Shown here: piece after piece, positions 7,329-43,965 of the stretch
How the letters are laid out: each line of letters begins with the position of its first letter
Numbering within the stretch: position 1 is the stretch's first letter
NCBI GenBank assembly: GCA_023252035.1
Contig: JAHEXQ010000003.1
Location: 1 to 43,965 of the forward strand
Length of the DNA: 43,965 bases
Reading direction: 5' to 3'
Origin: Actinomycetes bacterium
Lineage (GTDB): Bacteria > Actinomycetota > Geothermincolia > Geothermincolales > JAHEXQ01
Position numbers and translations under genes: made by a program
Notes under the pieces: model-generated
Database searches by the model: none
What the model was told of the DNA's origin: nothing
Seen by the model: the letters and a program-made list of their open reading frames with translations, nothing else

Positions 7329-7985
7329 ATGGCTTACAGCAAAGGACTGGTATATCTGGCCGGGCCGGCCTACATCTCGGAGGAAGCGCACGCCCTGGAG
7401 GTCATAGCGGGGCGGCTCATTCGCAAGGGCTGGGAGGTATATATCCCCGCAACCCAGGGGCTGGAGCCGCATTTCCTGGCCCTGGCCGCGGCGCCGCCTG
7501 ACGGCGGGTTGCAGCGCTTCCGTGAGGTACTGGAGAAGGCCGCCTTCGCGATGGAGATATTCCAAGTGGTGGAGCGGTGCGATGCTCTCGTCTTCAACAT
7601 GAACGGCCGCGTCCCCGACGAAGGGGGAGTCTTCAAGACGGCTGTGGCTTTCGCCGCCGGGAAACCGCTCATCCTGTACAAACGGGATCACCGGTCCAAG
7701 CTGCACGGCAACGACAACGCTATGATACCCGGGCTTTCCTATAGCTTCTCCAACGTGAGGAAGGCCAAGAAGATACCTGGGAAGTTGGAGCAAGCCCTGC
7801 GGAAGTCTGAGGGGTTCGCGGGCCGTCCCTATGCCGGCGATGCCGTTCCCCCCTTCGTGCGACACATAACGGACCAGGGGCGCCAGGTTTGGGAGGTTCT
7901 CCAGCGTTTCGTGGAGCGAGCCGGCGCACGCGAACCTTCGGCCCTGGAGGCCCTGTACGAGGAACTCTCCCGCATATTCGCATAA
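7329..7985 (+). CDS. NDT-family paralogue with Lys in place of the nucleophile Glu
   Basis: The ATG directly abuts the deoC TGA (7326-7328). VYLAGPAYIS and FNMNGRVPDEGGVFKTAVAFAAGKP parallel the first paralogue, but the Glu position is Lys (codon 7635-7637). Confidence 0.75.
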   Translation: MAYSKGLVYLAGPAYISEEAHALEVIAGRLIRKGWEVYIPATQGLEPHFLALAAAPPDGGLQRFREVLEKAAFAMEIFQVVERCDALVFNMNGRVPDEGGVFKTAVAFAAGKPLILYKRDHRSKLHGNDNAMIPGLSYSFSNVRKAKKIPGKLEQALRKSEGFAGRPYAGDAVPPFVRHITDQGRQVWEVLQRFVERAGAREPSALEALYEELSRIFA

Positions 7986-7988
7986 CAA

Positions 7989-8015
7989 GGGCCCCGGCTC
8001 CGCCGGGGCCCTTTT
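7989..8015 (+). terminator. Rho-independent terminator of the NDT-rbsK-deoC-NDT operon
   Basis: GGGCCCCGGC-TCC-GCCGGGGCCC is a perfect 10-bp GC stem followed by TTTT. It lies 4 nt after the stop. Confidence 0.85.
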
Positions 8016-8106
8016 CGCTTCCCCATTATCCTTAGCGGGAATTTGCGACCTCGCGTTTTCAGACCCGTGTTGTGGTAAGCTCGCAAGAGGTTTAAGAAAA
8101 CGAGGG

Positions 8107-8913
8107 ATGCTGGTGCGAAGAAAGAAACTCGTGGCGGCTGTTCCTTTGTTGCTGTCAGCCCTGTTGCTGCCGGGCCTGGGCTGCCGGTCAATTGCTCCTG
8201 CCGGTGGCGGCGGGGAGGCGGAGAGCCTGAACCCTCCGCCCGGCAGCCCCACCGTGGCCATCTGCGTGGACGATGTCGGTAACGGCGACGATTATCTTCC
8301 TGAATGGCTGGCCATCGAGGCGCCGCTCACCTTCGCCATCCTGCCTTACTCGGCCAAGACCACTTCCGATGCACAGACCCTGCAGGCCGCGGGACAGCAG
8401 GTGCTGCTCCACCTGCCTGAGGAGAACGACCCGCCGCACTCCTTCTCAGGCCAGGGCCAGGTCACCTGCGCCATGGAACAGGCGTCGGTGGACCAGGTCC
8501 TGGATGCGGATGCTGCCCAGATTCCCGGCATGGTAGGGCTCAATAACCACCAGGGCGGGAAGGCCGGAAACGATATCGGCCTGCAGAGGCGCGTTGTGGA
8601 CTGGGCCAGGCGGCACGGCGTTTTCGTTCTCGACAGCAACGCTTCTTCTCATCCGGTCGCCTATATCGCCGCGGGCGAGGTCGGGATGCCCGTGCGCATC
8701 AGCAACATCTTCCTGGATGATGAGACGGGCGCGCAGAGCATCCGGGATGCTCTGCGCCTTCTGGCGGCCAAGGCGCGCGTTTGGGGTACGGCGATCGGCA
8801 TCTGTCACTTCGCTCGTCCCGGCACCGCCGCGGTAATGGGGGAGATGATCCCCGTCCTGCAGGCTGAGGGCATCCGCTTCGAGTTCGTCTCCAACGTCAC
8901 CAACCACCCCTGA
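8107..8913 (+). CDS. Divergent polysaccharide deacetylase (YibQ/DUF610-like) lipoprotein
   Basis: Signal peptide with lipobox LLPGLGC. GLNNHQGGKAG motif. 268 aa. Confidence 0.7.
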   Translation: MLVRRKKLVAAVPLLLSALLLPGLGCRSIAPAGGGGEAESLNPPPGSPTVAICVDDVGNGDDYLPEWLAIEAPLTFAILPYSAKTTSDAQTLQAAGQQVLLHLPEENDPPHSFSGQGQVTCAMEQASVDQVLDADAAQIPGMVGLNNHQGGKAGNDIGLQRRVVDWARRHGVFVLDSNASSHPVAYIAAGEVGMPVRISNIFLDDETGAQSIRDALRLLAAKARVWGTAIGICHFARPGTAAVMGEMIPVLQAEGIRFEFVSNVTNHP

Positions 8914-9015
8914 CCGATTTATTGAATTCTGCGGTCAGACCCCAGAATTTAATAACGCCCGCCGAACCCAAGTCACGGCTGCATTAACACACGTCGGGCC
9001 GGGAAGAATAGCGGC

Positions 9016-9975
9016 ATGGAAGCTATCCCGATGCGGAGGCGCGCTGAGCTGGAGGTCGTCATCCCGCAGCCCTTTGATTTTCAGCTCACGATAGGCAAGC
9101 CCGCGGGCTGGTACTGGTGCTCGCCCCGGGAGATCTTCGCCGACGGCATCCTGTGGGGCGGTATGTACATGCCGGCGGAGTTCAGCCACACACCAGTGGG
9201 CGTGAAGCTCCGTTACGAAGATGAAGCCGTGAAGGTACGGGCCTACGCCCCATCGGCCCTTTCGCCGCAAGCGCTCGATTACCTGAGGCGGGAGATCGAG
9301 GCGGGACTCGGTCAGGACCTGGACCTGGAGGGCTTCTACAGGTTTGCCCGCAAAGACCCCGTACTGAAGCAGACGGTCGAAGACCTGTACGGCATGCGCC
9401 TGGGTAGCTTCGATGACCTCTTCGGCCGGGTGACCCTGGCCATCACCCTGCAGATGGCGCCCTGGAAACGCAGCCAGCAGATGACGGATGCGCTCCTCGC
9501 CAACTGGGGGACTGCCCTCCGTTTCGACAGTAAGACGGTGATCCTCTGGCCTACAGCGGAGGCCATCGCAGCGGTGGATGAGTCAGAGCTGAGGGATGTG
9601 GCCAAGCTGGGTTACCGGGCGAAACTGTTCTCCGCCGCAGCACGCTACATGGTAGACGCCCCCGTAACCATGCGGGAACTCGATGGGTTATCGGAAGAGG
9701 AGGCGGCCGCGCGGGTCAGGGCTATCCCGGGAATCGGGGCTTACGCCTCCGGCATCGTGCTTCGCAGCGGCACTGCCCCCATCGATGCCTGGAGCGTCAT
9801 CCTCATGAGCGAACTCCTCCTCGGCGAGACCCCAGCGAAACCGCGGAAGGAGATAAAACGCATCAACGGGCTGGTCAAAGAGCGCTGGGGCCCATGGAGC
9901 TGGATGGCCTTTGCCTATATACTGAACGACCTGCATAATCTGTCGTCATCCTACAATATCTCGAGGCTGCACTAA
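9016..9975 (+). CDS. HhH-GPD DNA glycosylase, AlkA-like
   Basis: Helix-hairpin-helix IPGIGAYASGIVL followed by PIDAWSV (candidate catalytic Asp), plus an AlkA-like N-terminal domain. An alternative start is at 9031. Confidence 0.55.
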   Translation: MEAIPMRRRAELEVVIPQPFDFQLTIGKPAGWYWCSPREIFADGILWGGMYMPAEFSHTPVGVKLRYEDEAVKVRAYAPSALSPQALDYLRREIEAGLGQDLDLEGFYRFARKDPVLKQTVEDLYGMRLGSFDDLFGRVTLAITLQMAPWKRSQQMTDALLANWGTALRFDSKTVILWPTAEAIAAVDESELRDVAKLGYRAKLFSAAARYMVDAPVTMRELDGLSEEEAAARVRAIPGIGAYASGIVLRSGTAPIDAWSVILMSELLLGETPAKPRKEIKRINGLVKERWGPWSWMAFAYILNDLHNLSSSYNISRLH

Positions 9976-9998
9976 GCCGGCCGGAAGGAAACAACGCA

Positions 9999-29996: not shown

Positions 29997-30034
29997 GTTA
30001 CAGCAGTTGTGTACAGCTTTCGCTTCGTCGAGTA

Positions 30035-30337
30035 TCATGCCCTTGAAGCTGAAGGTTTGGGTCTCGCGTCCACAAAGATCGGCCGCACGGAAATACCCAA
30101 GCTATTGCTAACAGCTCTGGCCGCTTTCTCGACGCGGTCTTGTCTGTCGGTTTCAAAGTCCCAGTCACGAAAACCAATTACTAGGAAATAGCCGAAGCGC
30201 ACGCCTTCGGCGCGCATATAGGTAGGTGTTTGAGTTGTCAAACCATGCCAGAACTTTGTATTATTCATGAGCTTAACCTCAATAAGGGCTCGCGCTTGCC
30301 ATCCTCGGCTAAATTTGAAGTCAACGGGCCCGCGGCC
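30035..30337 (-). pseudogene. 5'-truncated PD-(D/E)XK-like nuclease remnant
   Basis: The protein-like part is GRGPVDFKFSRGWQARALIEVKLMNN... (D...E-V-K). The first ~22 codons of the track ORF are antisense to the TIR remnant and look non-native. Confidence 0.4.
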
Positions 30338-30341
30338 CGCA

Positions 30342-30656
30342 TTGGATTCATTCGAGTTGACGATCGGTGACAGTCTTCGCCGGAAGATCGACAACGGGTT
30401 GTCCAAGAGTAGATTTGGTATTGTCGTTCTATCGCAGGCATTTTTTGCAAAAGGCTGGACAAACTACGAATTGGATGGGCTTGTCACAAAAGCAGTAAGC
30501 GGCGAACAGATTCTGTTGCCCATCTGGCACAACATATCGAAGCAGGAGGTTATAGCCTACAGCCCATCGCTTGCCGATAAACTCGCTCGGAGCACCACGA
30601 CCCACACAATACAAGAGATAGCGCAAGAAATCGTTGAGGTCATAAGGTGCACATGA
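30342..30656 (+). pseudogene. 5'-truncated TIR-domain gene remnant
   Basis: LDSFELTIGDSLRRKIDNGLSKSRFGIVVLSQAFFAKGWTNYELDGL...ILLPIWHNISKQEV matches the central and C-terminal parts of bacterial TIR domains. No FISH/beta-A segment appears in any upstream frame. Confidence 0.65.
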
Positions 30657-30721
30657 GGACAAGGCGCTCCAGCAGATCATTCAAGTTGCCCACAGTTGAA
30701 AGGAAAAGCTGAGGTTCTATC

Positions 30722-31567
30722 GTGCTAGCTTTGGATCTTTGGGAGCATGACATCAGCGTTGATCTCGGATATCTTGCGGTTCACATTTGTGAGTGTTACG
30801 CGGTGCCGCTAGGACCGATAAGACCCCACGACCTTAAGGAATTAAATGATCGCGATTTTGATCAAGCCATTGTAGTGAACGCAAAAGGCGATTTGATTGG
30901 CGGGATAACTGCATGGCGCCTGGAAGATCTGCGACGAAACAATCAAGAACTTAGCCAAGAGGAAGCCGTTAGCGGCTTCAAAGAAATTCACAACCATTGT
31001 TCCCTTGATGTTCTCCTCGAATTCCTATCAGCTAGCAAATTCGGCTTTATCGTAGAAGAACATGATGCTGAGCAGCTAGGGACCTATGCTTCTGTCTTGG
31101 GGCTATTAACCATTGCTGATCTGAATAAACGATATTTCCGGTCTCTCCTTTATATGATTCTAGCCGAAATAGAAATGGCCTTCGCCGGACTGATTATGCA
31201 GTGCTGCACAGACCCCAATAATAAATGGCTTGAGAAGCTCGGGGATGATAGCTTGAGGCGCATTCTCGGATTCTGGCAGCTCTCAAAATTCAGAAATGTG
31301 GAAGTTGACCCAATCGAATATTGTAATCTAACGGACCTTCTTGTGGTAACAAAGAAGAACCCCGAAATAGGCAGGATTCTTGGAAACGAATCCAGCGCAT
31401 GCATCAAAAGAATTCGTAAGCAGCTCCCGGAATGGAGAAATCGCGTGATGCATCCCGTTCGGCCACTGATAACTTCGCAGGGCGACATAGCTGCTCTTAG
31501 AAACGTCCTCGCAGACATCTACAGCTTAGGAAAAAGGATTTACGAGATTCAACCCAAATCGAGGTAA
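30722..31567 (+). CDS. CBS-pair-like N-terminal domain fused to a HEPN-like C-terminal domain (RNxxxH)
   Basis: GTG start follows GAGG. CBS-like segments are AIVVNAKGDLIGGITAWRLEDL and FGFIVEE...VLGLLTIADLNK. The helical C-terminus carries WRNRVMHP (R-N-R-V-M-H at 31436-31453). Confidence 0.55.
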   Translation: MLALDLWEHDISVDLGYLAVHICECYAVPLGPIRPHDLKELNDRDFDQAIVVNAKGDLIGGITAWRLEDLRRNNQELSQEEAVSGFKEIHNHCSLDVLLEFLSASKFGFIVEEHDAEQLGTYASVLGLLTIADLNKRYFRSLLYMILAEIEMAFAGLIMQCCTDPNNKWLEKLGDDSLRRILGFWQLSKFRNVEVDPIEYCNLTDLLVVTKKNPEIGRILGNESSACIKRIRKQLPEWRNRVMHPVRPLITSQGDIAALRNVLADIYSLGKRIYEIQPKSR

Positions 31568-31625
31568 GTCTCAAAGCGGTTTCTAGGAACCTTTGCTTCA
31601 ACAATCCAACACCAACAATCTGGTA

Positions 31626-31634
31626 TGTGATAAT
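31626..31634 (+). promoter_or_regulatory. Possible extended -10 promoter element for the SNF2 operon
   Basis: TGTGATAAT (TGn + GATAAT) lies about 80 nt upstream of the ATG at 31714. The -35 region is only weakly matched. Confidence 0.25.
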
Positions 31635-31713
31635 AAGGGCGGAGCAATGCAACTTTGAACCATGCAGGGACGGGGCTAGTTGATCTCGACGTCTGTGAAA
31701 GAAAGCATGGAAA

Positions 31714-34701
31714 ATGGGTGAGAATTACCTTACTTTCAGATTGCGATACTTAGCAGAGAAGATGACGCTCAAACGCGCATCTTCCGATGCCGCAAAACTC
31801 AACCAGAGTATTGGCCGTGCTACCGTTGACCTTAACCCCCATCAGATAGAAGCATCTATCTTTGCTTTCAAGAGCCCGCTAGCCAGAGGGGCTATTCTCG
31901 CTGATGAAGTCGGCCTTGGTAAGACCATTGAGGCAGGCTTAATCATTAACCAGCTTTGGACTGAGGGAAGGAGAAAGATTCTCATCCTTTGTCCCGCTTC
32001 CATAAGAAAACAATGGGAAGAAGAGCTCTATACCCATTTCGATCTTCCCGCGAAAGTGATTGACGGCCAGCGCTTCAATACACTCGTTTCTGGCGGGCGG
32101 AAGAACCCACTAGCAGACGAAGGGATTATTATCGCATCTTTGGATTTCGGATACCGAAAGGCAGCGGAGATAAAGACAACTCACTGGGATCTCGTCGTTA
32201 TTGATGAGGCCCATCGGCTAAGAAACGTGTGGAAAGCTGACAATAAGGTGGCAAGGAGAATTAAGGAGGCCATATCCGGCCCTAATGTTAGAGGGAAAGT
32301 CCTTCTTACAGCCACACCGCTGCAGAACAACCTGATGGAGCTCTTTGGCCTGGTGAGCTTTATCGACGAACAGGCTCTGGGCACAAACTACTCCTTCAAG
32401 AAGAAGTTCCTCTCTCCGGACGAGCAGGAATTGGTTGTCAACCTCGAAGATCTTCGCGAAAGACTTATCGGCAGAATCAATCCAAAAACAGGGAATGTGA
32501 CGAGTGGGATCATTATGCGATCTCTAAGAAGGCAGGTTCGGGAATACATTCCATATACTGAAAGAACCAGTATGACCGTGGACTTTGAGCCTAATGATGA
32601 CGAGTGGGAGTTATATCAGTTCGTCTCTGACTATCTGGCTCGCGATGATATTTTGTCCGTCGAGACAAAACAGCGCGCCCTGATGATTCTCATATATAGG
32701 AAAATACTGGCCAGCTCTTCCTTTGCTATCGCTGGTACGCTGAAGAGCCTGATCTCCCAACTTGAGCGGAAACTCCAACTAGTAAGAGCCAGCCAGCAAC
32801 CAGCGCAAGCCTCGGACATTAGCGAAGACGCTAAGGAAGACAATGACGACGCTTACCTTGAAGAAATGGAAGAGGAAGAAGAGCGCGCGGAGGAAGAGGC
32901 CGAAATCGAGAAGCAAGAGATCACTGAAGAAGTCTTGGCCGCTGAAATCAACGAGCTGAAGAAGTACTACGACCTAGCTATAAGGATTTCGAAGAACGCC
33001 AAGGGAGAGGCTTTGGTTAATGCCCTTCGCAATATTTTTACGGAAGCGGCAAAGAAAAACTGGCCTCAGAAGGTGGTCATCTTCACAGAATCCAGACGAA
33101 CCCAGAACTATCTCTATGACCTTCTATCCCGAAATGGTCATGACGGGCAAATAGTCCTTTTCAATGGATCAAACAACCATAAAGATGCAAACATTGCATA
33201 CGCGGAATGGTGCAAAGAATTCCCAGCCATGGCCAGAACCGGCAATCGCGCAACAAACATAAGGCAGGCTCTGATCCACGACTTTCGGAAGAACAAGAAG
33301 GTCTTTATTGCGACAGAGGCTGGGGCTGAGGGCGTCAACCTGCAGTTTTGCAACATCGTCGTTAACTACGACTTACCCTGGAATCCTCAGAGAATCGAAC
33401 AGCGTATTGGAAGATGCCATCGCTATGGTCAGAAACGCGACGTGGTCGTGGTCAATTTTGTCAACCGGAAAAACGCTGCAGACGAAAGACTCTATGACAT
33501 TCTGGCGAAGAAGCTTAAGCTCTTCGACGGTCTTTTTGGTTCATCAGATGAAATCATGGGCGCTCTAGGATCCGGAATTGACTTTGAAAAAAGGATACTC
33601 GGAATATACCAAACCTGCCGTGATCCTGAAGCAATCCAGCTAGCTTTTGATGACCTGCAGCAGGACCTCGAAGTGGAGATCAACGACCGCTTCATCCAAA
33701 CGCGCCATCTATTGATGGAGCATTACGATGATGACGTGAGACGTAAGCTGAGATTGAGAAATGACCAATTGAGCGAACAGCTCTCCGAGATTGATGAAGA
33801 AATAAAAGAGATTGTTCAGATAGCGCTCGGCGATCATCTAAAGCCAACCGATGATCCCAATATCTTCAAAGTGAACTCTCTACCACCAGAGCTGGTTTTG
33901 AAGGTGCCGGAAGAGCTTACAGGCCAACTGGTCAGCTTTAGACCAATCAGCGTTGAAGAAAAGGATAAAGGAATTGGTCGCCTACATCTCTTCCATCCGT
34001 TGGTTTCAGAGATCATTGAAGTAACCAAAGCGCAGGAATTGAGCAATTTCCTTTCCATCTCTTTCGAGTATACAAAAGGCCAACACAGAATCAGTCTCCT
34101 TAATGATTTTGTAGGCCAGATAGGCTATCTGTTTCTCTACAAAGTGATCTTTGAGGGCATTGAAACGATTGAATACTTGCTTCCGATTGCTATTGCGTAT
34201 CATGGGGACGAATGGGTTCCGCTATCCAAAGAGCAGACAGAGAAGCTCTTGACGGTTACCCTGAGCGAGAACGGAATAGCGGAAAACACCCCAGGAGACA
34301 TAAGCAGAACTATTGAAACCGCTCATGAATCACGAAAGGAATCCCTTACCAATTATTTGAAGATAGTTAACGAAGAGTATTACGACCAGGAACGTGAAAG
34401 GTTAGACCTTTACACTGAAGAAAGTCTAATGGAGCTGGAAGATCAGGTTGATAAGAAGAAGCGCGAATGGAATGAAGCAAAACGCAAACTATCGCGTGCT
34501 AACAACCACGAAGAGAGAATGAGCTTAAGGGCTGGGGTTTATAAGCTCGAAAGGGAATATCGGCGTTTGCTTTCCAAGAGAGATCAGGAGAATTTGAAAT
34601 CTTTTGAAGAAAAGGACCTACAGCTTAAAAAGCTTGAAGGCAGGCTGAGATTTAAACTTGCCGATAGCTTGATACTTAGAGCCGAGTTCGAGATTAAGTA
34701 A
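31714..34701 (+). CDS. SNF2-family (SF2) helicase/translocase with a long C-terminal extension
   Basis: LNPHQIEA, ILADEVGLGKT, VVIDEAHRLRN, LLTATPLQNNLMELF, FIATEAGAEGVNLQ, QRIGRCHRYGQ. There is an acidic insert between the lobes and an approximately 350-aa coiled-coil-rich C-terminus. Confidence 0.9.
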   Translation: MGENYLTFRLRYLAEKMTLKRASSDAAKLNQSIGRATVDLNPHQIEASIFAFKSPLARGAILADEVGLGKTIEAGLIINQLWTEGRRKILILCPASIRKQWEEELYTHFDLPAKVIDGQRFNTLVSGGRKNPLADEGIIIASLDFGYRKAAEIKTTHWDLVVIDEAHRLRNVWKADNKVARRIKEAISGPNVRGKVLLTATPLQNNLMELFGLVSFIDEQALGTNYSFKKKFLSPDEQELVVNLEDLRERLIGRINPKTGNVTSGIIMRSLRRQVREYIPYTERTSMTVDFEPNDDEWELYQFVSDYLARDDILSVETKQRALMILIYRKILASSSFAIAGTLKSLISQLERKLQLVRASQQPAQASDISEDAKEDNDDAYLEEMEEEEERAEEEAEIEKQEITEEVLAAEINELKKYYDLAIRISKNAKGEALVNALRNIFTEAAKKNWPQKVVIFTESRRTQNYLYDLLSRNGHDGQIVLFNGSNNHKDANIAYAEWCKEFPAMARTGNRATNIRQALIHDFRKNKKVFIATEAGAEGVNLQFCNIVVNYDLPWNPQRIEQRIGRCHRYGQKRDVVVVNFVNRKNAADERLYDILAKKLKLFDGLFGSSDEIMGALGSGIDFEKRILGIYQTCRDPEAIQLAFDDLQQDLEVEINDRFIQTRHLLMEHYDDDVRRKLRLRNDQLSEQLSEIDEEIKEIVQIALGDHLKPTDDPNIFKVNSLPPELVLKVPEELTGQLVSFRPISVEEKDKGIGRLHLFHPLVSEIIEVTKAQELSNFLSISFEYTKGQHRISLLNDFVGQIGYLFLYKVIFEGIETIEYLLPIAIAYHGDEWVPLSKEQTEKLLTVTLSENGIAENTPGDISRTIETAHESRKESLTNYLKIVNEEYYDQERERLDLYTEESLMELEDQVDKKKREWNEAKRKLSRANNHEERMSLRAGVYKLEREYRRLLSKRDQENLKSFEEKDLQLKKLEGRLRFKLADSLILRAEFEIK

Positions 34702-34715
34702 CCAGGAGCATTTAC

Positions 34716-37700
34716 ATGCAAGAGCAACCTGAATTATTAGAACCAAAGACTTATACAAACACCGGCCTCTTCGCTGACTATTTCTTATCTGAAAAGTTGC
34801 CGCAAGAACGGGCGTGGTTTGACGCCCTTGAGGACCCCAAGACCCAAGAGCTATTCGACGAGCTACGGGAGCTCTTTAGGTCCAAGCAGGATGCACTTAA
34901 AGGTTCCAATGAAGCTCAGACCGAGGACGAGTTTATACGCCCAATCCTTGGCTTGCTAGGCTTCTCGTATATAGTGCAAACACCAACGAAGACTATGGGG
35001 CGCACTCAAACGCCGGACTATGCTTTGTTCGCTGACGATCAAGCCAAGCAAAAAGGCTTTCAAGGGGTCAAGCAGAACAACTACTCAAATGCCCTAGCTA
35101 TAGCTGATGCTAAATATTGGGACCGCCCGCTCGACAAGAAACTTAAAGATAGTAGGGACACTCTTACCAATCAAAACCCCACCTTCCAGATTTCCAGCTA
35201 TTTGATTTCGACGAAAACAAAGTGGGCCATTCTCACTAATGGAAGACTCTGGCGCCTGTATTCTCGCGATCAAAGCCAAACGATGGGCGAATATTATCAG
35301 GTCGACTTAGCACAGGTGCTGGAATCCGGTGAGCTGAGCGACTTCCTTTATTTCTACCTGTTCTTTAGAAAAGAGGCTTTTCAGCCCGCGCCGGCTGAAG
35401 CCTTTTTAGACCAAATCATCAAAGCTAGCATCGATTATGGCGCGAAGCTCCAAGAGAACCTCAAGAAGGAGATATTCGAGAAGATCTTCGTCTATTTCGC
35501 CAAAGGTTTTGCTAATTGGCGAGGGCAAAATGGAGAAAGTATAGAGACCCCCGAAAGCCTGAAAGAGATATTCGATAATACCTTGATTTTGCTCTACCGA
35601 CTGCTGTTCATTCTTTATGCAGAATCCCGCGTCCTCTTGCCCGTGAGAGAGCGGGACAAGTATTACACGAAAAGCCTAGCTAAAATCAAAGGCGAGATTA
35701 AACAAGACATCGAGGGGCGCAAGAGTCTAAGTAAGGTTTCGACCGATTATTGGGATGACCTGGTTAACCTCTTCCACATAATCGATAGAGGGGACCCCGA
35801 CCTGAATATTCCCAAATACAATGGTGGGCTCTTTTCTAGAACGCATGCGTTCCTGGAGACCAACAAGATCGCTGATTCATACTTGGCAGAGGCTATTTAT
35901 CTCTTGACGACTTATTTTGACGAAAGCAGAAAAGCCTGGGTGTTTGTTGACTTCAAATCCTTAGGTGTCAAACAGCTTGGATCCATCTACGAAGGCTTAC
36001 TGGAATTCCATTTAAGCATTGCTAGAGAGGAATTAGCAGTCGTAAGAGAAAAGGGCCGAGAGAAATATGTACCAGTCGGCCAAATCGCCAAAGGCCAAAA
36101 GGATACAGGTGCTCGTATTAAGCCTGGCGACCTCTACTTTGAAAACACCAAAGCGGAGCGCAAAGCCACGGGCTCATATTACACGCCGGATTACATAGTC
36201 AGATACATAGTCGAAAACACCGTGGGACCCTCAATCCAAGAAATTGAGGAATCCTTCTCCAAGCAGGTTGAAGTTCTAAAGCGTGACCCGAGATACAAGA
36301 ATCAGTCCGCAAAATGGAAGAATAAGGAATTAAAAAAACATGACCCTGCGCTCAAGGCTCTTGAACTGAAGATATGCGACCCAGCCATGGGTTCGGGTCA
36401 CTTCTTGGTTTCGACGGTGGATTTCATTGCCAACCGTATCTTTGAGATATTGACCAAATACTCTGACCAGATCTATTTTGGCCAAGAGCCCTACGAAAGT
36501 CTATTGTTCCAACAGATTCAAGAAATCCGCAAACACATTTTAGAAGAGATGGACAGGCAGCAAGTAACGATTGAGAAGGAAAAACTGGAAGACGATAAAG
36601 TCATCATACGGCGAATGGTCATGAAACGATGTATTTTCGGCGTTGATTTGAATTATCTTGCCGTCGAACTTTCAAAGCTTTCCCTTTGGCTAAACTCATT
36701 CGCGGTCGGTGCTCCTTTGTCGTTTCTCGACCACCATCTTAGGTGGGGGAACAGCTTAATAGGGGCAAGCATTGATGGTGTGCAAAGAGAAATGGAAAAG
36801 AGCATCTTCGGCTCTCGCTTCGCGGGTTTGCTTTCTGCTACGAGCGCTATGAGAAAGGTGGGCGAACTGACGGATTCAACATTTTTCGAATTGGAGGAAA
36901 GCAAAAAGGATTTCGAACAAGCCCTAGAGTGGTTGTCACCCTATAAGAGAGTTCTCAGTATCTGGACAAGCCACTATTTCGGTAACGATGGAGCGAAGGA
37001 TTTAATTGACCAAGGCCGCATTGACCCCGATAGGTTTGAAGAAGACAGGGATCAACTCATTGGCCAGGACTTGAGAGTTGTCGATAGAGCAACAACCATT
37101 GAGAAGGAAAAGGGTTTTTTGCACTGGGAACTCGAATTCCCGGAAGTCTTTTACAGCGCCACAGGGAAAATGACGAACGCAGGATTCGATGCAGTTATTG
37201 GAAATCCTCCTTACATTAACGCGAACGAGCTCAATAAGCAGCTATCTCAATTCGAGAAGCCTTATTGGCGTATTTGTTTCTCATCAGCATCAGGTGCATA
37301 TGATGCTTACGTCTTGTTCCTGGAGCAAGCACTAAGGCTGACTCGCACGGGAGGTTTGGCCTCCTTGATTACACCTAATAAGTTCCTTTCGGCACCTTAT
37401 GGTGTAGCTTTGCGTGAATACCTATACAAAAACGCAAAGATGATGCGCCTCTTAGACGCTTCAAGAGCTAGGGTCTTTGATGATCCTTCCGTGTATCCGG
37501 TTGTAACGGTTTTCGAGAATACGTGCCCCCTTGATCGCTATAAGATACTCATTGAAACCATTCGCGAGAAAGACAATGAGAGATTCTCAGAGTTTAGTTT
37601 TCACGAGAGCGATAATTTAACGAAGCTGCCTGACAAGATTTGGGGATTCCTATTTTCGGAATATCTGCCGCTGATAGTCAAAGCTACGCAGACTTCGTTG

Positions 37701-38816
37701 AGCCTAGAAATGTGCTCGACCGTTCGTGCATCCAGTTCGGCAACTGAAGCTGATGCTTATGAGAAAGCATTAACAAATAGGCCGGGTAAAACCATGAAGA
37801 AATTCCTAAACACAGGGCTAATTAATCGGTTTGGCAACACGTGGGGCATTCAGCCTTTAGTGCACAAGGGGCATACATTCAGGACCCCTTATATTGATTT
37901 GGCTCACGATGTCGTAAGTGACAATCGCAGGGCACAATATGAAAAACCAAAAATCATATTTGCCAAGATTGCCAAGCGGATTGAAGCGTACTTAGACAGA
38001 GGCGGCACATTCGCTTCGGCAAATACGAATTTTGTTTATGATTCTGAATTCGACCTGGGCTATTTACTCGCGATTCTAAACAGTAGATTGATGTCGACCT
38101 TGTATCAGGGATATTTCGGCGCGCTAATCATGAGTGGCGGCTACTTTCAGTTCCAGGCACCACAATTAAGAGTCCTCCCGATCCGCAAAATTGATTTTAC
38201 GACGCCAACAGTGGAACGAAAGAAGAAGGCTGAAATATTGGAAGCAATGTATGCAGATTGTCGGGTCGATTCCGCTTTCGATAAGATTAATAGCTTCATC
38301 GATGAGCTGCTTTCTAAGAAGCACAGCCTAGGTCCTCAATCTGCGCGAACGACGAAAAGCGAAATCCTCGACATAAAGAAAAGGGGCAAAAAAGAAACAT
38401 CCCTTAGCCAGGCAGACGTGGTCCATGATTTCCTAGCTTTCTTGTCCAACCAAATGACTGAAATGAATAAACAAAAGCAAATGGAGGCTTCGGGATTCAT
38501 AACATACCTAGAAAGGACAATTGGCGGTGATGTTGGAAATCTAGCAAATAGATCGTTTGTCGTAGGCTATTACAATCATTCGATTGAAGGGCTGCTGGAT
38601 GTTTTGCATCGAAATGAAGATAGGCTCCGGGGGTTCGATTCGAAATCACGTGGCGACCAAGAAAGACTCGAAAAGGAATTCAACAAGAGCAAGCAGAAGC
38701 TCGATCCTCTAAAATCACAAATCGAAGGAACCGACCGCCTCATCGAGCAAATTGTCTATAAGTTATACGGCTTGACGGATGAGGAAATCGAAATTGTCGA
38801 AAGCTCTCAACGATGA
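34716..38816 (+). CDS. Large Eco57I/PglX/MmeI-like N6-adenine DNA methyltransferase with an N-terminal PD-(D/E)XK-like motif
   Basis: GSYYTPDYIV (36171 onward), CDPAMGSGHFLV (36378 onward) and IGNPPYI (NPPY at 37203-37214). The N-terminus has TPDYALF (PD at 35013-35018) and ADAKYW (D-A-K at 35106-35114), then WAILTNGRLWRLY. The C-terminal ~500 aa is TRD-like plus coiled coil. Confidence 0.9.
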   Translation: MQEQPELLEPKTYTNTGLFADYFLSEKLPQERAWFDALEDPKTQELFDELRELFRSKQDALKGSNEAQTEDEFIRPILGLLGFSYIVQTPTKTMGRTQTPDYALFADDQAKQKGFQGVKQNNYSNALAIADAKYWDRPLDKKLKDSRDTLTNQNPTFQISSYLISTKTKWAILTNGRLWRLYSRDQSQTMGEYYQVDLAQVLESGELSDFLYFYLFFRKEAFQPAPAEAFLDQIIKASIDYGAKLQENLKKEIFEKIFVYFAKGFANWRGQNGESIETPESLKEIFDNTLILLYRLLFILYAESRVLLPVRERDKYYTKSLAKIKGEIKQDIEGRKSLSKVSTDYWDDLVNLFHIIDRGDPDLNIPKYNGGLFSRTHAFLETNKIADSYLAEAIYLLTTYFDESRKAWVFVDFKSLGVKQLGSIYEGLLEFHLSIAREELAVVREKGREKYVPVGQIAKGQKDTGARIKPGDLYFENTKAERKATGSYYTPDYIVRYIVENTVGPSIQEIEESFSKQVEVLKRDPRYKNQSAKWKNKELKKHDPALKALELKICDPAMGSGHFLVSTVDFIANRIFEILTKYSDQIYFGQEPYESLLFQQIQEIRKHILEEMDRQQVTIEKEKLEDDKVIIRRMVMKRCIFGVDLNYLAVELSKLSLWLNSFAVGAPLSFLDHHLRWGNSLIGASIDGVQREMEKSIFGSRFAGLLSATSAMRKVGELTDSTFFELEESKKDFEQALEWLSPYKRVLSIWTSHYFGNDGAKDLIDQGRIDPDRFEEDRDQLIGQDLRVVDRATTIEKEKGFLHWELEFPEVFYSATGKMTNAGFDAVIGNPPYINANELNKQLSQFEKPYWRICFSSASGAYDAYVLFLEQALRLTRTGGLASLITPNKFLSAPYGVALREYLYKNAKMMRLLDASRARVFDDPSVYPVVTVFENTCPLDRYKILIETIREKDNERFSEFSFHESDNLTKLPDKIWGFLFSEYLPLIVKATQTSLSLEMCSTVRASSSATEADAYEKALTNRPGKTMKKFLNTGLINRFGNTWGIQPLVHKGHTFRTPYIDLAHDVVSDNRRAQYEKPKIIFAKIAKRIEAYLDRGGTFASANTNFVYDSEFDLGYLLAILNSRLMSTLYQGYFGALIMSGGYFQFQAPQLRVLPIRKIDFTTPTVERKKKAEILEAMYADCRVDSAFDKINSFIDELLSKKHSLGPQSARTTKSEILDIKKRGKKETSLSQADVVHDFLAFLSNQMTEMNKQKQMEASGFITYLERTIGGDVGNLANRSFVVGYYNHSIEGLLDVLHRNEDRLRGFDSKSRGDQERLEKEFNKSKQKLDPLKSQIEGTDRLIEQIVYKLYGLTDEEIEIVESSQR

Positions 38817-40783
38817 CCATACAATTTCTTATTAACGATGACGGTACTCCCTTTAAATCGCCTGATATACAGACATTGCGTGCGGCATTAGATTCGCTCG
38901 GGAATAATGAACGGGAAGAGTACCGCAATCAAAACGCTTCAGCTATTGCACGACACGATGCCGTCAAATTCCTGATTGTATCTGGACCCGGAACGGGCAA
39001 GAGCCACCTTTTCCTAAGCAGGATTGACTATTGGTTTCAAAAAGACCAAGACGCAAGCGTTGTTGTCACAAGCTTTGTTCGAAAGTTAGTGGCTGATTTG
39101 CAGAATGATATTGAGAGCGACGAAAGACTAACCGCCGAGCAAAAAAACAGAATTTCAGTATCCACCTTGCATAAGTTTGCTCGCAGCATTGTAGAAAAAA
39201 ATCACGGTACGGCCGAATGGCGATTTAGTCCGCATTTTCGGATCATAGGACAGTCTTGGAAGGAAATAGTGTGGGGTGATGTGCTTGCTTTCCATATCAG
39301 CGTGGACGGCGGTGTCTATACATGGCAGGAATTTGAGAAACAATTGCATGATCATTGCTTTGAGGAATCCGATGAATGGAAGGTGTTAAAAGAAACCTAT
39401 TTTAGGCTCTGCCAATTCTATAATGCGGCTGGATTTGCTGATTTGATTTTGCATGCCACAAAGGCATTAGCAGAAAATTCTACTCTAAATGAAGATGCTT
39501 ATTTCATAGTTGACGAGTATCAGGATTTCAATCTTGCTGAAGAAGCTCTTATAAACCAATTGGCAGATAATCCCAAAGGCCTACTTGTCGTTGGCGATGA
39601 TGAGCAAGTCCTTTACGAAGAGTTAAAATCAGGCAAACCCACGTTGATTCGCAACCTGTATAAAAACACAGACTATGTCAACGGAATGCTTCCTTTCTGC
39701 AGTAGGAGTAGCCACCACATTACAAAAACTGTTGACCATTTCATTCAACAGCTCAGGGAGGCAGAATCGATAGAAAAGATTTACTTGCCCTTAACCGCCG
39801 ATACCGATGAACCGAAAGTCCAGGTTATTGCTTGTGCCACTTCGGCGACTGCTGTCGATTATATTAAGAAATTTGTTCAGGATAACAAGGCAGAAGTTGA
39901 CGAGCGCAAGACTAAATTGGAATCCGGCGAAGCAAAGGATGCCTTTCTGCTCATCTTGACTCCTGCTAAAAAAGTAAAGTTCTTCGGACAATCAAAAGAA
40001 GAAATCGAGCGTATCGTCGCGGAATATCAACCCGAAAACCGTTATTTCTCAGAGGACTATTACAAAGTGTTGAGTTATTACTCCCTAGCAAACAATCCCC
40101 GTAATAATTTCACCTTTCGAAAGGTGTTGTACTACGAAGATATTTCAACAGCAAGAGTACATGAATTGATCGAAATCGCTATGCAGAAAAATCAATCCTT
40201 TTGCGAAGTTAATTCCGATGAAATCAAGAATGCACAAGAGAAGTGTAACAATATTAAGACGATTCTTGAAAATGAGGGTACAGCCACTGAAACAAAGATA
40301 GAGGACATTGCCCGGCTTGTCTCCATAGCTGATAAGGCCAGACTCAAGGAAGATATTTCACAAAAATCCATTAGCCAAGAAGAAATTGCAAAGATTGAAC
40401 ACGAAGAAGAGGAAGAGGCGGAGTTAGAAGAAATTGAAGTAAAGAAAATGGGCGCTGTTGAGCTAATCACCATAGTTGGCTCAAAGGGTTTATCTGCGGA
40501 TCATGTAGTTATTATCGGTTTTGATAATGTAAATATGAGCCGGGTAACGAAGAATGCGTTTTATGTTGCCATGGCCCGCGCTAGAAATAGTTTACACATT
40601 CTTACTGCCCTAAAATCGGGGGGCGCGGAACAAGCACACGACTTCCTAAATCAATTGCCAGATAATCATACCGAATATCACAGTTATAAGAAAAGCGGCC
40701 GAGAAACAAATCCATTGCGAGGCAAACAAGGATTCAGGAGCTATCTCAATAACATAATTTCTATGTCAAGGCGAAGGCGATAA
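38813..40783 (+). CDS. UvrD/Rep-like SF1 helicase
   Basis: ATGA overlap with the methyltransferase stop. SGPGTGKSH, VSTLHKFA, IVDEYQDFN, VVGDDEQVLY, GSKGLSADHVVIIG, YVAMARARNSL. No recognisable nuclease domain. Confidence 0.85.
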   Translation: MTIQFLINDDGTPFKSPDIQTLRAALDSLGNNEREEYRNQNASAIARHDAVKFLIVSGPGTGKSHLFLSRIDYWFQKDQDASVVVTSFVRKLVADLQNDIESDERLTAEQKNRISVSTLHKFARSIVEKNHGTAEWRFSPHFRIIGQSWKEIVWGDVLAFHISVDGGVYTWQEFEKQLHDHCFEESDEWKVLKETYFRLCQFYNAAGFADLILHATKALAENSTLNEDAYFIVDEYQDFNLAEEALINQLADNPKGLLVVGDDEQVLYEELKSGKPTLIRNLYKNTDYVNGMLPFCSRSSHHITKTVDHFIQQLREAESIEKIYLPLTADTDEPKVQVIACATSATAVDYIKKFVQDNKAEVDERKTKLESGEAKDAFLLILTPAKKVKFFGQSKEEIERIVAEYQPENRYFSEDYYKVLSYYSLANNPRNNFTFRKVLYYEDISTARVHELIEIAMQKNQSFCEVNSDEIKNAQEKCNNIKTILENEGTATETKIEDIARLVSIADKARLKEDISQKSISQEEIAKIEHEEEEEAELEEIEVKKMGAVELITIVGSKGLSADHVVIIGFDNVNMSRVTKNAFYVAMARARNSLHILTALKSGGAEQAHDFLNQLPDNHTEYHSYKKSGRETNPLRGKQGFRSYLNNIISMSRRRR

Positions 40784-40835
40784 GCCCCCGATGAACGTGT
40801 CTAAATGCCCTGCTACCTGCAGTTTTATCGATTAC

Positions 40836-41793
40836 TGTTAGCGGGCACTCAAATGCGGACACCTAAGAACACTTGAAAACCGGCCACTTGAGGTAGGTAA
40901 TAATGGGCGCCACACTCCTTTCAGGAAGGAGTGATGGCCTTGACAAACTACCTCAAGATGGAGAAAAGAAGCAGCGTAGAGACACTCTTAGAGCTGGGAT
41001 GGAGCTACCGGCGCATCGAACGGGAGACCGGGGTGCGCAGGGAGACGGTGGCGCGCTACGACAAATCCCGACATTCAAATGCGGCCAAAGTGCCCACCGG
41101 CTCTGGTGAAGAGCCCCCAAATGCGGCCAAAGTGCCCACCGGCTCCCGTGGATCCAGGAGCCAGGCCCGGCCCTGGCACGAAGAGATCGCGGCGGGGCTT
41201 TCAGGGGGCCTCACCTGCCAGCGCATCTGGCAGGATCTCGTGCAGGATCACGGATATGTAGGTTCCTACGAGTCGGTAAAGCGCTACGCGAAGCGCATCA
41301 AGCTCACCCACCCCGAGGTGGCCGACGTCTTGCACGCCCCTCCCGGGGCCGAGGCCCAGCAGGATTTCTTCCGCGGGCCACCCACCTTTCGGGCCGATAC
41401 GGGCCGCTGGGGCCGTCCCTGGGTCTTCGGAATGGTACTGGCCTGTTCCCGCTACTCCTACGAGGAGGCGGTCTGGTCCCAGGACATCACATCCTTTATC
41501 CGCCTGCACGAAAACGCCTTTCGTGCCTTCGGCGGGATTCCCAGGGTAGTGAGGCTGGATAACCTGAAGAGCGGAGTGGCCAGAGCGGCCCTGTACGACC
41601 CGGATATCAATGCGGCCTATGCCTCTTTTGCCACTCACTACGGATTCACCCCGTTGCCCTGTGCTCCCGGAAAGCCCGAGGAGAAGGGGAAGGTGGAACG
41701 GGCGGGCGCCTACCTGAAGGGCAACGCCCTGGCCGGCCGGCGCTTCGACAGCTTGGCCGAGCTGAACGAGTACCTTACCCGCTGGAACTGCCT
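40836..41793 (+). mobile_element. IS21-family element 1: left end plus truncated istA
   Basis: Composition returns to GC-rich at about 40.8 kb. TGTTAGCGGGCAC...GCGGACAC motifs lie upstream of istA. The element is interrupted near 41.79 kb. The left boundary is approximate. Confidence 0.5.
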
Positions 41794-41803
41794 ATTCTGG
41801 TGA
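40931..41803 (+). pseudogene. istA: IS21-family transposase IstA, C-terminally truncated
   Basis: N-terminal HTH (LLELGWSYRRIERETGVRRETVARY). DDE region (QQDF, RLDN, KGKVER). It ends ...LNEYLTRWN then CLFW*, about 100-200 aa short of full-length IstA proteins. Confidence 0.75.
41076..41145 (+). repeat. In-frame tandem duplication inside istA
   Basis: The 28-mer CAAATGCGGCCAAAGTGCCCACCGGCTC occurs at 41076-41103 and 41118-41145 with a 42-nt period, giving NAAKVPTGS twice. Confidence 0.9.
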
Positions 41804-42124: not shown

Positions 42125-42889
42125 CTAGTCATCTCCGCTCTCCGGACCTTTCTGCCCCTTCGGATCCTGGCGCTTTCGCATGGATGCGCCCTTTAGCACG
42201 ATGCGGTGGGCGCTGTGCACCAGGCGGTCCAGGATGGCGTCGGCCACCGTCGGCTCCCCGATCACCTCATGCCAGGCGGAGACCGGAAGCTGCGAGGCCA
42301 GGATGGTGGCACGGGAGGAGTGGCGGTCCTCGATCACCTCCAGGAACTGCCTCCTCTCGCCATCCGTCAAGGCGGCAAGCCCCCAGTCATCGACCACCAG
42401 CACGTCGGCCCGCTCCAGCTTGGCCAAAAACCGGGGCCAGGACCCATCGGCCTGGGCCATGAGCAGGGCGGAGAATAGGCGGGGAGCTCGGAAGTAGAGG
42501 GCCGAGTATCCCTTGCGCAGCGCCTGGTCGGCCAGGGCGCAGGCCAGATAGGTCTTCCCGGTGCCCGTGGGCCCGACTATCAGGACCGCGGAGTGAGATG
42601 CCACCCAGCGGCAGTCGGCCAGCGAGCGCATGAGCGCTTGGTCCAGCCCGCGGCCGGAGCGGTAATCGATATCCTCCATGGAGGCCGGGATGCGCAGCTT
42701 GGCCGCCCGCATGCGCCGCTCCAGCTTACGGTTCTCTCGGTCCGTCCACTCCCGGTCTACGAGCATGCCCACCCTCTCCTCAAAGGAGAGCCCCTCGTAC
42801 GAGGAGAGCTCCGTCTGTTCAGAAAGGGCGTCCCGCAGCCCGAAGAGCTTCATGGCGTTTAACTTCTCTAGGGTCTGGGAAAAAAGCAC
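42125..42889 (-). CDS. istB: IS21-family helper ATPase IstB
   Basis: GTG start follows GGAGG. Walker A is VGPTGTGKTYLA and Walker B is VLVVDDWG. 254 aa. It starts 12 nt after the istA stop. Confidence 0.9.
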   Translation of the reverse strand: MLFSQTLEKLNAMKLFGLRDALSEQTELSSYEGLSFEERVGMLVDREWTDRENRKLERRMRAAKLRIPASMEDIDYRSGRGLDQALMRSLADCRWVASHSAVLIVGPTGTGKTYLACALADQALRKGYSALYFRAPRLFSALLMAQADGSWPRFLAKLERADVLVVDDWGLAALTDGERRQFLEVIEDRHSSRATILASQLPVSAWHEVIGEPTVADAILDRLVHSAHRIVLKGASMRKRQDPKGQKGPESGDD

Positions 42890-42901: not shown

Positions 42902-43965
42902 TTAGTTGTAGTAGGCGGGGCCGCGCACGTTGCCGTGCACAGGCGCCGACCTATCGGGGTCCCGATCGTCGCTTACCCTGTCCAGGCCGGCGTGAAGGAT
43001 GGACTTCACGCTGCGGTAGGAGAAGGCGCCGGCCTGAAGGGCTCTGGCGCAAGCCGCCTCCATGCGGTCTTGCCCGAACTTGCCGGAGAGCCGAATGATC
43101 CCCAGGCATGCGCGGTAGCCCATCTCCGGATGGGGCTTTGAGTTCATGATCCCTTGAACCAGGCGTGCGGTGGCCGGACCGGTCTGCTCAGCCCAGGATA
43201 TGATGCGCGACGGCGGCCAGGCCAGATGCGCCCGGTGCGATGCGGGGCGGTGCTCGTCCGCCGTGGTGTATCCGCCCCTCTGAAAACCGCGCTTGTGAGA
43301 AGCCACCCGCCTGCCCTTTTGAAATATCTCCACGGTCGAAGATGTCAGCCTGGCCTCCACCCGCTCACCGATCAGGCGGTGGGGCACGCTGTAGTAGTGG
43401 TGCTCGACCTCTATGTGGTAGTCGATGCTCACCTTGGCCTTTTTCCAGGTGGCCAGCTCGTACCGTTTCTCGGGAAGCGGTTTTAACGCCGGCAGGTCGT
43501 GGGAAAGAAACAGCTCCCGCCTGCTCTTGCCAAGCACCTTCATCTTGCGGTCGTTGAGCCAGGTAATGCGTTCGGCGATCGCCAGGTTGGCCTCGGCGAT
43601 GGAGTGAAAGACCCGGTGGCGCAGGGGGGCGAGAATCCAGCGCTCAGCCTGCAAAACCGCGTTTTCCACCTGCGCCTTGTCCCTTGCTTTTCGCACCCTG
43701 GCCGGTATGACCGCACAGCCGTAGTAGGCGGTCATATCATTGTAGGTGGGGTTGAGATCCGGCTCGTAGCGGCAGGCATGGGGGACGCCCACCCTTACGT
43801 TATCCGGGACCAGGATCTCGTTAACCCCTCCGAAGAACTCAAAAGCCCGGATGTGGGCGCCTATCCAGTTGGCAAGCTCCTGCGAGGCCACGGCACAGGC
43901 GTAGGTGTAGCTGGAGAACCCCTGGGCGGCCACGAACATCTGGGCTTCGCTTACCTCTCCCGTTT
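42902..43965 (-). CDS. istA: IS21-family transposase IstA (partial; N-terminus beyond the right edge)
   Basis: The frame stays open to the window end. VPDNVRVGV...DKAQVENAV (DDE D and E regions) and a long C-terminal domain. The sequence differs from element 1 IstA. Confidence 0.9.

Follow-up and report, generated by a model that had tools for sequence, protein, structure and literature searches.

The gene described here lies in a 43,965-nucleotide stretch of DNA (the window), positions 1 to 43,965 of the forward strand of contig JAHEXQ010000003.1 in the Actinomycetes bacterium assembly GCA_023252035.1. It is the open reading frame (ORF) at 30722..31567 on the + strand, which has a GTG start, includes the stop codon ending at 31567, and encodes a 281-residue protein with an N-terminal pair of CBS domains (a Bateman module) followed by a predicted HEPN domain; we refer to it as the CBS-HEPN protein. 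A first-pass annotation made from the letters alone had described it as a candidate ligand-gated RNase effector at the head of an island, and the ORF, the quoted strings in its translation (AIVVNAKGDLIGGITAWRLEDL, FGFIVEE...VLGLLTIADLNK, and WRNRVMHP), the RNRVMH at 31436-31453, and the 146 bp between its stop codon and the ATG at 31714 of an SNF2 gene on the same strand all agree with the ORF list and the sequence. The GTG start is reasonable because alignments to homologues run from about residue 8-13 onward. The surrounding island has ~45% GC (about 30000-40900) and is set in DNA of ~62-63% GC; it is limited on the left by an AMP-binding enzyme gene ending at 29996 and on the right by IS21 sequences from 40931, and the GC content of its genes is 46% for CBS-HEPN, 47% for SNF2, 45% for the methyltransferase, and 42% for the UvrD-like helicase.

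The full-length AlphaFold2 (AF2) model, built from an alignment of 108 homologues, has a mean predicted local distance difference test score (pLDDT) of 95.0 and a predicted template modelling score (pTM) of 0.90, and four kinds of evidence bear on its N-terminal part. Specifically, i) the AF2 secondary structure consists of beta/alpha CBS units at residues 12-135; ii) when the whole model is compared with the PDB by Foldseek, nearly all of the first 50 matches are Bateman modules or CBS-pair proteins, including CNNM, CorC, CbpB, DarB, MJ0100, and the regulatory domain of human cystathionine beta-synthase (hCBS), with E values of ~1e-5 to 4e-4, a probability of 1.0, and template modelling (TM) scores to the target of 0.5-0.7 for Bateman modules, hCBS ranking first with the highest sequence identity (21-24%); iii) the Pfam CBS family (PF00571) matches 42 of the 108 homologues (best E 1.1e-7); and iv) an hhalign comparison of our homologue alignment (A2) with the hCBS regulatory domain scores 96.8% with E 2.3e-10, placing G127LLTIAD133 in register with hCBS G532VVTAID538. 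A phmmer search of PDB sequences with the whole protein also returned the hCBS regulatory domain as its best, though weak, match (E 0.2). The fold, the Pfam matches of relatives, and the profile alignment together establish a CBS pair in the N-terminal part, as the first-pass annotation had supposed from two short segments.

The size of the family emerged only from an exhaustive HMMER search across 1.84 billion cluster representatives, which revealed 542 clusters at E<=1e-3, 222 of them at 1e-10; a word-indexed search had recovered just 4 relatives. The RNxxxH motif is present in 149 of the 153 relatives retrieved; of the remaining four, one is a fragment that stops short of the motif and three keep R-x4-H (as RH or RD variants). 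By our estimate, chance alone would place a single RNxxxH in about 1% of proteins of 281 residues, so that the motif is meaningful because it is conserved among homologues and not because it occurs once. Column counts were taken from A2, whose 108 full-length members have a mean identity to the CBS-HEPN protein of about 30%. Exactly four columns are invariant (D133, E151, R239, and H244), and the arginine and histidine proposed from the outset as a catalytic pair are thus among them; N240 (105/108), M243 (107/108), P245, R247, P248, T130 (100/108), L134 and N135 (106/108 each), R140, Y144, and W169 are at least 90% conserved.

The first-pass annotation did not recognise this fusion as a named defence protein. 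That view has been overtaken: CBS-HEPN fusions were noted in 2013 (PMC3710099), and DS-11, a 365-residue one-protein anti-phage system of E. coli that combines CBS and HEPN domains (WP_000257686.1), is now both named and validated (DefensePredictor study, PMC13092281; preprint January 2025, Science 2026). In DS-11, the substitutions Y157A in the CBS domain and R330A and H335A in the HEPN domain abolish defence (PMC13092281), and residues 252-359 were assigned to HEPN_Swt1 by HHpred at 0.98 (PMC13092281 supplement). Comparison of the two proteins reveals that i) A2 aligns with DS-11 by hhalign at 97.3% (E 1.6e-11), and with an alignment of 36 DS-11 family members (A5) at 98.4% (E 8e-15) over 241 columns that cover residues 7-274 of the CBS-HEPN protein and ~118-364 of DS-11, including the last helix; ii) F46, in a column that is aromatic in 104 of 108 homologues, falls in register with Y157, R239 with R330, and H244 with H335, the very residues required for defence; iii) each is a single polypeptide with a CBS pair followed by HEPN and with Rx4H about 30-40 residues from the C-terminus; iv) in both, a G-h-h-T-x-x-D-L motif runs directly into an E-I-E helix, GLLTIADLN...AEIE of the CBS-HEPN protein matching GIITTTDLS...SEIE of DS-11; and v) the NCBIfam model based on DS-11 (NF053863, 'CBS domain-containing anti-phage protein', DS11_antiphage) matches 56 of the 108 homologues, with a best E of 6.5e-12 and all scores far below its cut-off.

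The differences are equally clear. Identity between the two proteins is 17-19% by hhalign, and our word-index profile search did not reach DS-11. The N-terminal ~115 residues of DS-11, which are conserved in its own family (invariant V27, R28, R38, R39, T58, P60, F62, and D68), have no counterpart in the CBS-HEPN protein, where only about 6-12 residues precede CBS1. DS-11 relatives are mainly proteobacterial and fall into thousands of clusters, whereas the short family is rare and comes almost only from metagenome-assembled genomes (MAGs) of other phyla. Judged from these alignments, the CBS-HEPN protein is a true but distant homologue of DS-11, and a short variant rather than an equivalog, because it lacks the N-terminal region and scores far below the NF053863 cut-off.

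The HEPN assignment of the C-terminal domain is supported, partly indirectly. In the AF2 model residues 137-276 are all helical (137-161, 168-172, 175-190, 197-200, 203-212, 214-220, 223-243, and 253-276), with the short helices at 197-220 lying between long ones; R239-N240...H244 stands at the C-terminal end of helix 223-243, which ends at M243, and is followed by a loop (244-252) that contains the conserved residues HPVRPL and by the last helix (253-276). HEPN domains carry an Rx4-6H motif with a polar residue after the R, located where a long helix gives way to a loop and a final helix, frequently have inserts between helices 2 and 3, and often have a second conserved acidic residue, placed in helix 2 (PMC3710099). 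Topology was judged here from AF2 secondary structure, and R239-N-R-V-M-H244 has the expected spacing, with R and H in 108/108 and the polar N in 105/108. In the DS-11 alignment the invariant E151 falls on the E that is invariant in the 'EIEN' stretch of that family, but it lies in the first long helix, not in helix 2, and is not in an Ex3[KR] context. The signature reported by the first-pass annotation is exact, invariant in its R and H, located at a helix end, and in register with that of DS-11; direct fold and profile matches to known HEPN domains are weak, and no Pfam family matches the protein itself.

These weak matches lend some substance to the alternative that the domain is a non-catalytic helical output or oligomerisation domain, its R..H serving to bind a ligand or partner and the protein acting by sequestration or signalling. 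Modelled separately, the C-terminal domain (pLDDT 93.6) has no significant structural match by Foldseek in the PDB (best E 0.3) or BFVD, the highest TM-score being to Csm6 (5yjc, query-normalised TM-score 0.46, E 1.2), with the HEPN-MNT structure 7bxo at E 1.0; its profile finds no relevant relative among PDB sequences; and the Pfam HEPN matches among homologues are confined to HEPN_Swt1 in 1 of 41 members (E 0.019) and HEPN_Apea in 1 of 108 (E 0.0098). An hhalign comparison with one HEPN_Swt1 sequence (from locus L007) gave E 0.024 with the motif in register; this is an insensitive test, and its negative outcome says little because DS-11 itself matched there only over the motif. Some HEPN-like domains are indeed non-catalytic (PMC3710099). 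We nevertheless regard a non-catalytic domain as very improbable here: R, H, and the upstream acidic E151 are invariant, and the polar N nearly so, among 108 sequences at ~30% identity; the aligned R330 and H335 are essential in DS-11; and the DS-11 domain was assigned to HEPN_Swt1. We therefore prefer a catalytic HEPN domain, with RNase activity as its predicted function.

The closest solved relative of the sensor suggests what it may bind. The structure of the hCBS regulatory domain with S-adenosylmethionine (SAM) at 1.7 Å (PDB 4UUU) shows F443 stacked on the adenine, D444 and Q445 bound to the methionyl nitrogen and carboxylate, T535 bound to the carboxylate, and D538 bound to the ribose hydroxyls; F443A, D444A, Q445A, and D538A impair SAM binding, binding rotates CBS1 relative to CBS2 by about 33 degrees, and the FDQ motif was called 'fairly unique to CBS enzymes' (PMC4276868). 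Our hhalign comparison aligns family FDQAPV with hCBS F443-D444-Q445-A-P-V and GLxTxSDLN with G532VVTAIDLL, and all five SAM-contact side chains are present in the CBS-HEPN protein as F46, D47, Q48, T130, and D133. Across the family the corresponding columns are F/Y in 104, D in 96, Q in 69, T in 100, and D in 108 of 108 sequences, and the cystathionine beta-synthase model TIGR01137 matches 23 of the 108 homologues.

Members of the family were found in only 35 of 185,579 species-representative genomes, nearly all MAGs and scattered over many phyla (Acidobacteriota, Binatia, Bipolaricaulota, Patescibacteria, NC10, Nitrospinota, Deinococcales, Phycisphaerales, Chloroflexota, and others); no relatives were found on viral contigs. 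Proteins of ~265-290 residues in Bacteroidota (L044-L047) match the C-terminal RNxxMH domain only (about 107-278 of the query), their N-terminal half being unrelated to that of the CBS-HEPN protein in sequence; the HEPN-like module is therefore also paired with another sensor. Some family members, such as those at 1243-2802 of locus L048 (a Trueperaceae MAG) and P0075 (494 residues), carry an extra N-terminal domain of ~230 residues that is unlike the DS-11 extension and whose motifs, by eye, resemble the uracil-DNA glycosylase superfamily.

Most homologue contexts are defence-like, with two clade-specific exceptions. Neighbours include Hachiman (L014), a type III restriction-modification (RM) pair with the homologue just upstream (L017), type I HsdR (L025), DrmMI nearby (L036), a DUF1156 methyltransferase with a phospholipase D (PLD)-helicase, both preceding the homologue, and a retron-type reverse transcriptase (L045), GmrSD (L010), Abi_alpha (L001), small nuclease-like genes (L003), a PIN toxin (L050), UvrD-like helicases (L029 and L042), and toxin-antitoxin modules, as well as ordinary metabolic genes at several loci. 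At L007 the homologue lies 12 nt downstream of an operon of SNF2, a DUF1156 methyltransferase, and DUF499; the DUF499 ATPase (6645-9989) has its own N-terminal HEPN_Swt1 domain, so that two HEPN proteins stand side by side. Among 116 flanking proteins of homologues, examined with Pfam and PADLOC, no partner recurs across the family. Since neighbours vary from locus to locus and DS-11 works alone, these data favour an autonomous module with a tendency to settle in defence islands; the first-pass annotation had named homologues in housekeeping contexts only as an observation that would overturn it, and the contexts seen here are for the most part defence-like.

The same data bear on the genes next to CBS-HEPN in the window (Table 1). 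Upstream, an ORF encoding part of a TIR domain ends 65 bp before the CBS-HEPN gene. Its match to the ThsB-like PADLOC profile PDC-S66 is limited to positions 171-280 of 282, and its match to Pfam TIR_2 begins at profile position 19; it lacks the first TIR strand and the whole N-terminal part, and the island sequence upstream of it is too short to encode the missing ~170 residues, and for these reasons it is probably a 5′-truncated remnant at the left edge of the island rather than a partner. A 123-residue ORF on the opposite strand (30035-30406) overlaps its start and contains an 'IEVK' stretch that recalls PD-(D/E)xK nucleases; it has no family match and may represent a further gene remnant or simply be spurious. 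The TIR fragment retains the W-x-x-x-E region and lies on the same strand close by, as would be expected if CBS-HEPN were receptor and effector for a nucleotide signal from a TIR protein, in a Thoeris-like pair; given the truncation, the failure of TIR to recur beside homologues, and a pocket that matches a SAM site down to the side chains contacting the methionyl group, we consider such a pair exceedingly improbable, and a link to cyclic ADP-ribose (cADPR)-type signals, implied by the mention of cADPR isomers in the first-pass annotation, is likewise not supported.

Table 1. Coordinates in the window of the CBS-HEPN gene, its parts, and its neighbours
Feature	Position	Strand	Basis
Complete CBS-pair + HEPN gene	30722..31567	+	ORF, alignment to 108 homologues, AF2, hhalign to DS-11 family
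Bateman module: CBS1 about aa 12-72, CBS2 about aa 79-135	30755..31126	+	AF2, Foldseek, Pfam on relatives, PDB phmmer
F46-D47-Q48, counterpart of hCBS F443-D444-Q445 'FDQ' SAM-contact motif; F46 = DS-11 Y157	30857..30865	+	hhalign
G127-L-L-T130-I-A-D133, G-h-h-T-x-x-D ribose-binding motif of CBS2	31100..31120	+	hhalign with hCBS, conservation
C-terminal all-helical domain aa 137-276, predicted HEPN RNase	31130..31549	+	AF2, DS-11 homology
E151, invariant acidic residue, first long helix of C-terminal domain	31172..31174	+	alignment
R239-N-R-V-M-H244, Rx4H HEPN signature	31436..31453	+	alignment, AF2, DS-11 register
Upstream TIR-domain ORF, 129 aa, C-terminal fragment	30267..30656	+	PADLOC PDC-S66, Pfam TIR_2
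DrmD-like SNF2 helicase	31714-34701	+	PADLOC, NCBIfam, Pfam
DrmMI-like/type IIG N6-adenine methyltransferase, 1366 aa	34716-38816	+	PADLOC, NCBIfam, Pfam
UvrD/GajB-like helicase, 4-nt overlap with methyltransferase gene	38813-40783	+	PADLOC, NCBIfam, Pfam
IstA-like ORF, 290 aa, IS21 family	40931-41803	+	
IstB gene	42125-42889	-	
Transposase-like ORF with Mu-transposase C-terminal domain, probably IstA	42902-43939	-	

Downstream, the SNF2 protein scores 633 bits against the 950-bit cut-off of DISARM_DrmD_b, and DrmA, DrmB, and DrmC were not found in the window with PADLOC, NCBIfam, or Pfam. Membership of class 1 DISARM was rejected, the core genes drmA, drmB, and drmC being absent, and we read the SNF2-methyltransferase-UvrD operon as a non-canonical DISARM-like or type IIG-plus-helicases system, a SAM-dependent neighbour of CBS-HEPN. 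IS21-family sequences adjoin the island on its right side and may have mobilised it or cut it short.

Could CBS-HEPN instead be a dedicated effector or regulator of this operon, co-transcribed with it and not autonomous? The gene lies on the same strand and in the same low-GC island, 146 bp before SNF2, with no terminator-like + strand site between them, and homologues do occur beside methyltransferase systems, namely those described above at L007, L017, L045, and L036. Most homologues, however, have no such neighbours; the systems in question are of different, unrelated types; no partner recurs among the flanking proteins; and DS-11 protects as a single gene. A dedicated component is thus unlikely, and an autonomous module remains our preferred reading.

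The two clade-specific exceptions deserve separate mention. In two Deinococcales MAGs (L024 6278-13965 and L028 234-7882) the homologue lies between metF and metH-metK, 4 nt from metH, with a SAM-I riboswitch (RF00162, 85-92 bits) upstream of metF; at L028 a gene for a Uma2-family putative endonuclease is inserted beside the homologue. In a Chloroflexota subclade (L030, L034, and L038-L041) a gene of ~370-390 residues is next on the same strand in conserved synteny, and five flanking proteins of this subclade have a LytR_cpsA_psr domain with a zinc ribbon. Both arrangements, together with the resemblance of the sensor to the SAM-binding regulatory domain of cystathionine beta-synthase and the 2013 proposal that CBS-HEPN fusions are ligand-responsive regulators of RNA stability (PMC3710099), would suit a housekeeping SAM-responsive RNase or regulator of methionine and SAM metabolism rather than an immune protein. 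This we find rather improbable: in the met operons the homologue has 30-36% GC and its neighbours 51-55%, which points to a foreign insert; the family is confined to a few dozen of the species genomes and scattered over phyla; the gene in our window belongs to a low-GC island with IS21 copies and defence genes at its borders; and the relative DS-11 is experimentally anti-phage.

Taken together, the sensor fold, the conserved motif, the homology to DS-11, whose essential residues all have aligned counterparts, and the variable, defence-rich neighbourhoods make it probable that the CBS-HEPN protein is an anti-phage effector like DS-11, pared down to the core, that acts on its own and moves horizontally; this is in line with the first-pass description of a candidate ligand-gated RNase effector. 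Several observations pull the other way. The protein itself has no Pfam family at E<=1 and no match in the PADLOC library, which includes the DISARM (Drm) models; it scores 12.5 bits (E 0.059) against NF053863, far from the 260 bits required of an equivalog; fold and profile searches with the C-terminal domain return little; the Chloroflexota synteny is conserved; and the defence activity of DS-11 is experimental, whereas that of the short family is predicted from sequence and models.

The published DS-11 data contain a further clue to the trigger. Each construct in the screen was challenged with 24 phages (PMC13092281), and among the Table S7 rows covered here those for DS-11 are T3 (-log efficiency of plating 3) and Bas67 (1.7) only, from a plate on which T7, T4, T5, RB69, lambda, and others were also tested; the rows covered for its mutants are again T3 and Bas67 only (PMC13092281). 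T3 gene 0.3 encodes a SAM lyase, and in Bas67 (the Berlinvirus ErnstBeyeler) a protein annotated 'SAM hydrolase / restriction inhibitor' shares 66% identity with that enzyme; in T7-type phages the gene 0.3 locus holds Ocr (PMC8594841), and phage SAM lyase defeats type I restriction and BREX (bioRxiv 10.1101/2023.02.27.530186). RefSeq phage records (NC_003298.1 901-1359 and many others) misleadingly name the T3-type SAM lyase 'SAM-dependent methyltransferase'; the GenBank originals call the gene 0.3 product S-adenosyl-L-methionine hydrolase.

Because the hCBS pocket residues, the Deinococcales met operons, and the T3 and Bas67 hits of DS-11 all point the same way, the putative ligand of the CBS-HEPN pocket is most likely SAM or a close SAM-derived molecule. 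A number of facts sit poorly with this suggestion: i) the CBS-HEPN protein has I50 where 99 of 108 relatives have P (hCBS P447), and the Chloroflexota subclade does not have the FDQxPV string; ii) DS-11 has Y-S-Q, T, and D in the pocket register, with S at the D444-equivalent position, where the CBS-HEPN protein has an hCBS-like F-D-Q, and the similarity of DS-11 to hCBS is weak (E 0.0039); iii) in the DS-11 study the modelled ligand was ATP rather than SAM, and its authors did not settle on one (PMC13092281); iv) T3 and Bas67 share further genes without counterpart in T7, and of the 24-phage panel these two were the phages in which SAM lyase was looked up; and v) adjacency to a methyltransferase is weak evidence, because methyltransferase systems are common in any defence island. 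Our search of the literature found no paper linking DS-11 or CBS-HEPN proteins to SAM.

How might such a protein work? HEPN RNases dimerise to form a composite active site, and Bateman modules pair as well. In the Bateman module, the cleft that separates CBS1 (F46-D47-Q48) from CBS2 (G127..T130..D133) would hold an adenosyl ligand. Conservation in the family is highest in the stretch G-L-x-T-x-S-D-L-N-R-H-x-x-R-x-x-L-Y-x-x-L-A-x-L-E, which leads from the ribose-binding D of CBS2 into the E151 helix, and because there is no linker between them, occupancy of the pocket could pass directly to the catalytic domain. Ligand occupancy would probably re-orient the two halves of the dimer, switching a metal-independent HEPN RNase on or off, and the resulting RNA cleavage would lead to an abortive or growth-arresting defence. 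The change that phage SAM lyases bring about in the SAM pool would be the most likely trigger; phages use these enzymes to counter restriction and BREX-type systems that depend on SAM, and the neighbouring methyltransferase operon may be an example of the systems so targeted. We put forward tentatively, as a possibility that we would not yet bet on, that CBS-HEPN proteins of the DS-11 kind, the short form included, guard the SAM pool: SAM would normally occupy the pocket, and a lyase would empty it or fill it with methylthioadenosine (MTA), releasing the RNase and aborting the infection.

We wish to stress that the value of the gene lies mainly in the combination of its SAM-pocket signature with published DS-11 data, which yields a specific and cheap-to-test hypothesis about the trigger of the whole class. 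If true, the protein would be an immune sensor to which a core metabolite reveals that an anti-restriction strategy is at work, the ligand and trigger of DS-11 would be identified, and we would learn how a widespread phage counter-defence is noticed by the cell and methylation-based immunity given a backup. Independently of the trigger, DS-11, whose validation has so far been limited to E. coli, is extended by a minimal and very divergent form in Acidobacteriota, Chloroflexota, Deinococcota, Planctomycetota, candidate phyla, and others; and since the short form lacks the DS-11 N-terminal region, CBS pair and HEPN together make up the conserved functional core.

Comparison with other known systems places the protein among sensors and effectors of several kinds. 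The hCBS regulatory domain is its closest solved structure by both sequence and fold, and FDQ(A)(P)V and G-h-h-T-x-x-D motifs are common to both; in hCBS, however, the module regulates a pyridoxal phosphate (PLP)-dependent enzyme, whereas in the CBS-HEPN protein it is fused to HEPN, its SAM site is predicted, and I50 replaces P447. Csm6 and Csx1 (the CARF-HEPN proteins of type III CRISPR) and RNase L likewise join a small-molecule sensor to a dimeric, nucleotide-switched HEPN RNase; they use CARF domains or ankyrin repeats in place of a Bateman module, CBS-HEPN has no associated cyclase, and the structural match of our C-terminal model to Csm6 is not significant. The CBS-HEPN and CBS-HD-HEPN fusions described in 2013 (for example alr3009 and Pelobacter gi 118580987; PMC3710099) have the same domains, with CBS thought to sense a nucleotide derivative and control RNA degradation, but some have an extra HD domain, they were discussed as signalling rather than defence proteins, and the likeness drawn here is at the level of domain composition. 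The kind is already known and validated in DS-11, and what is new is a shorter, very divergent variant from uncultured lineages.

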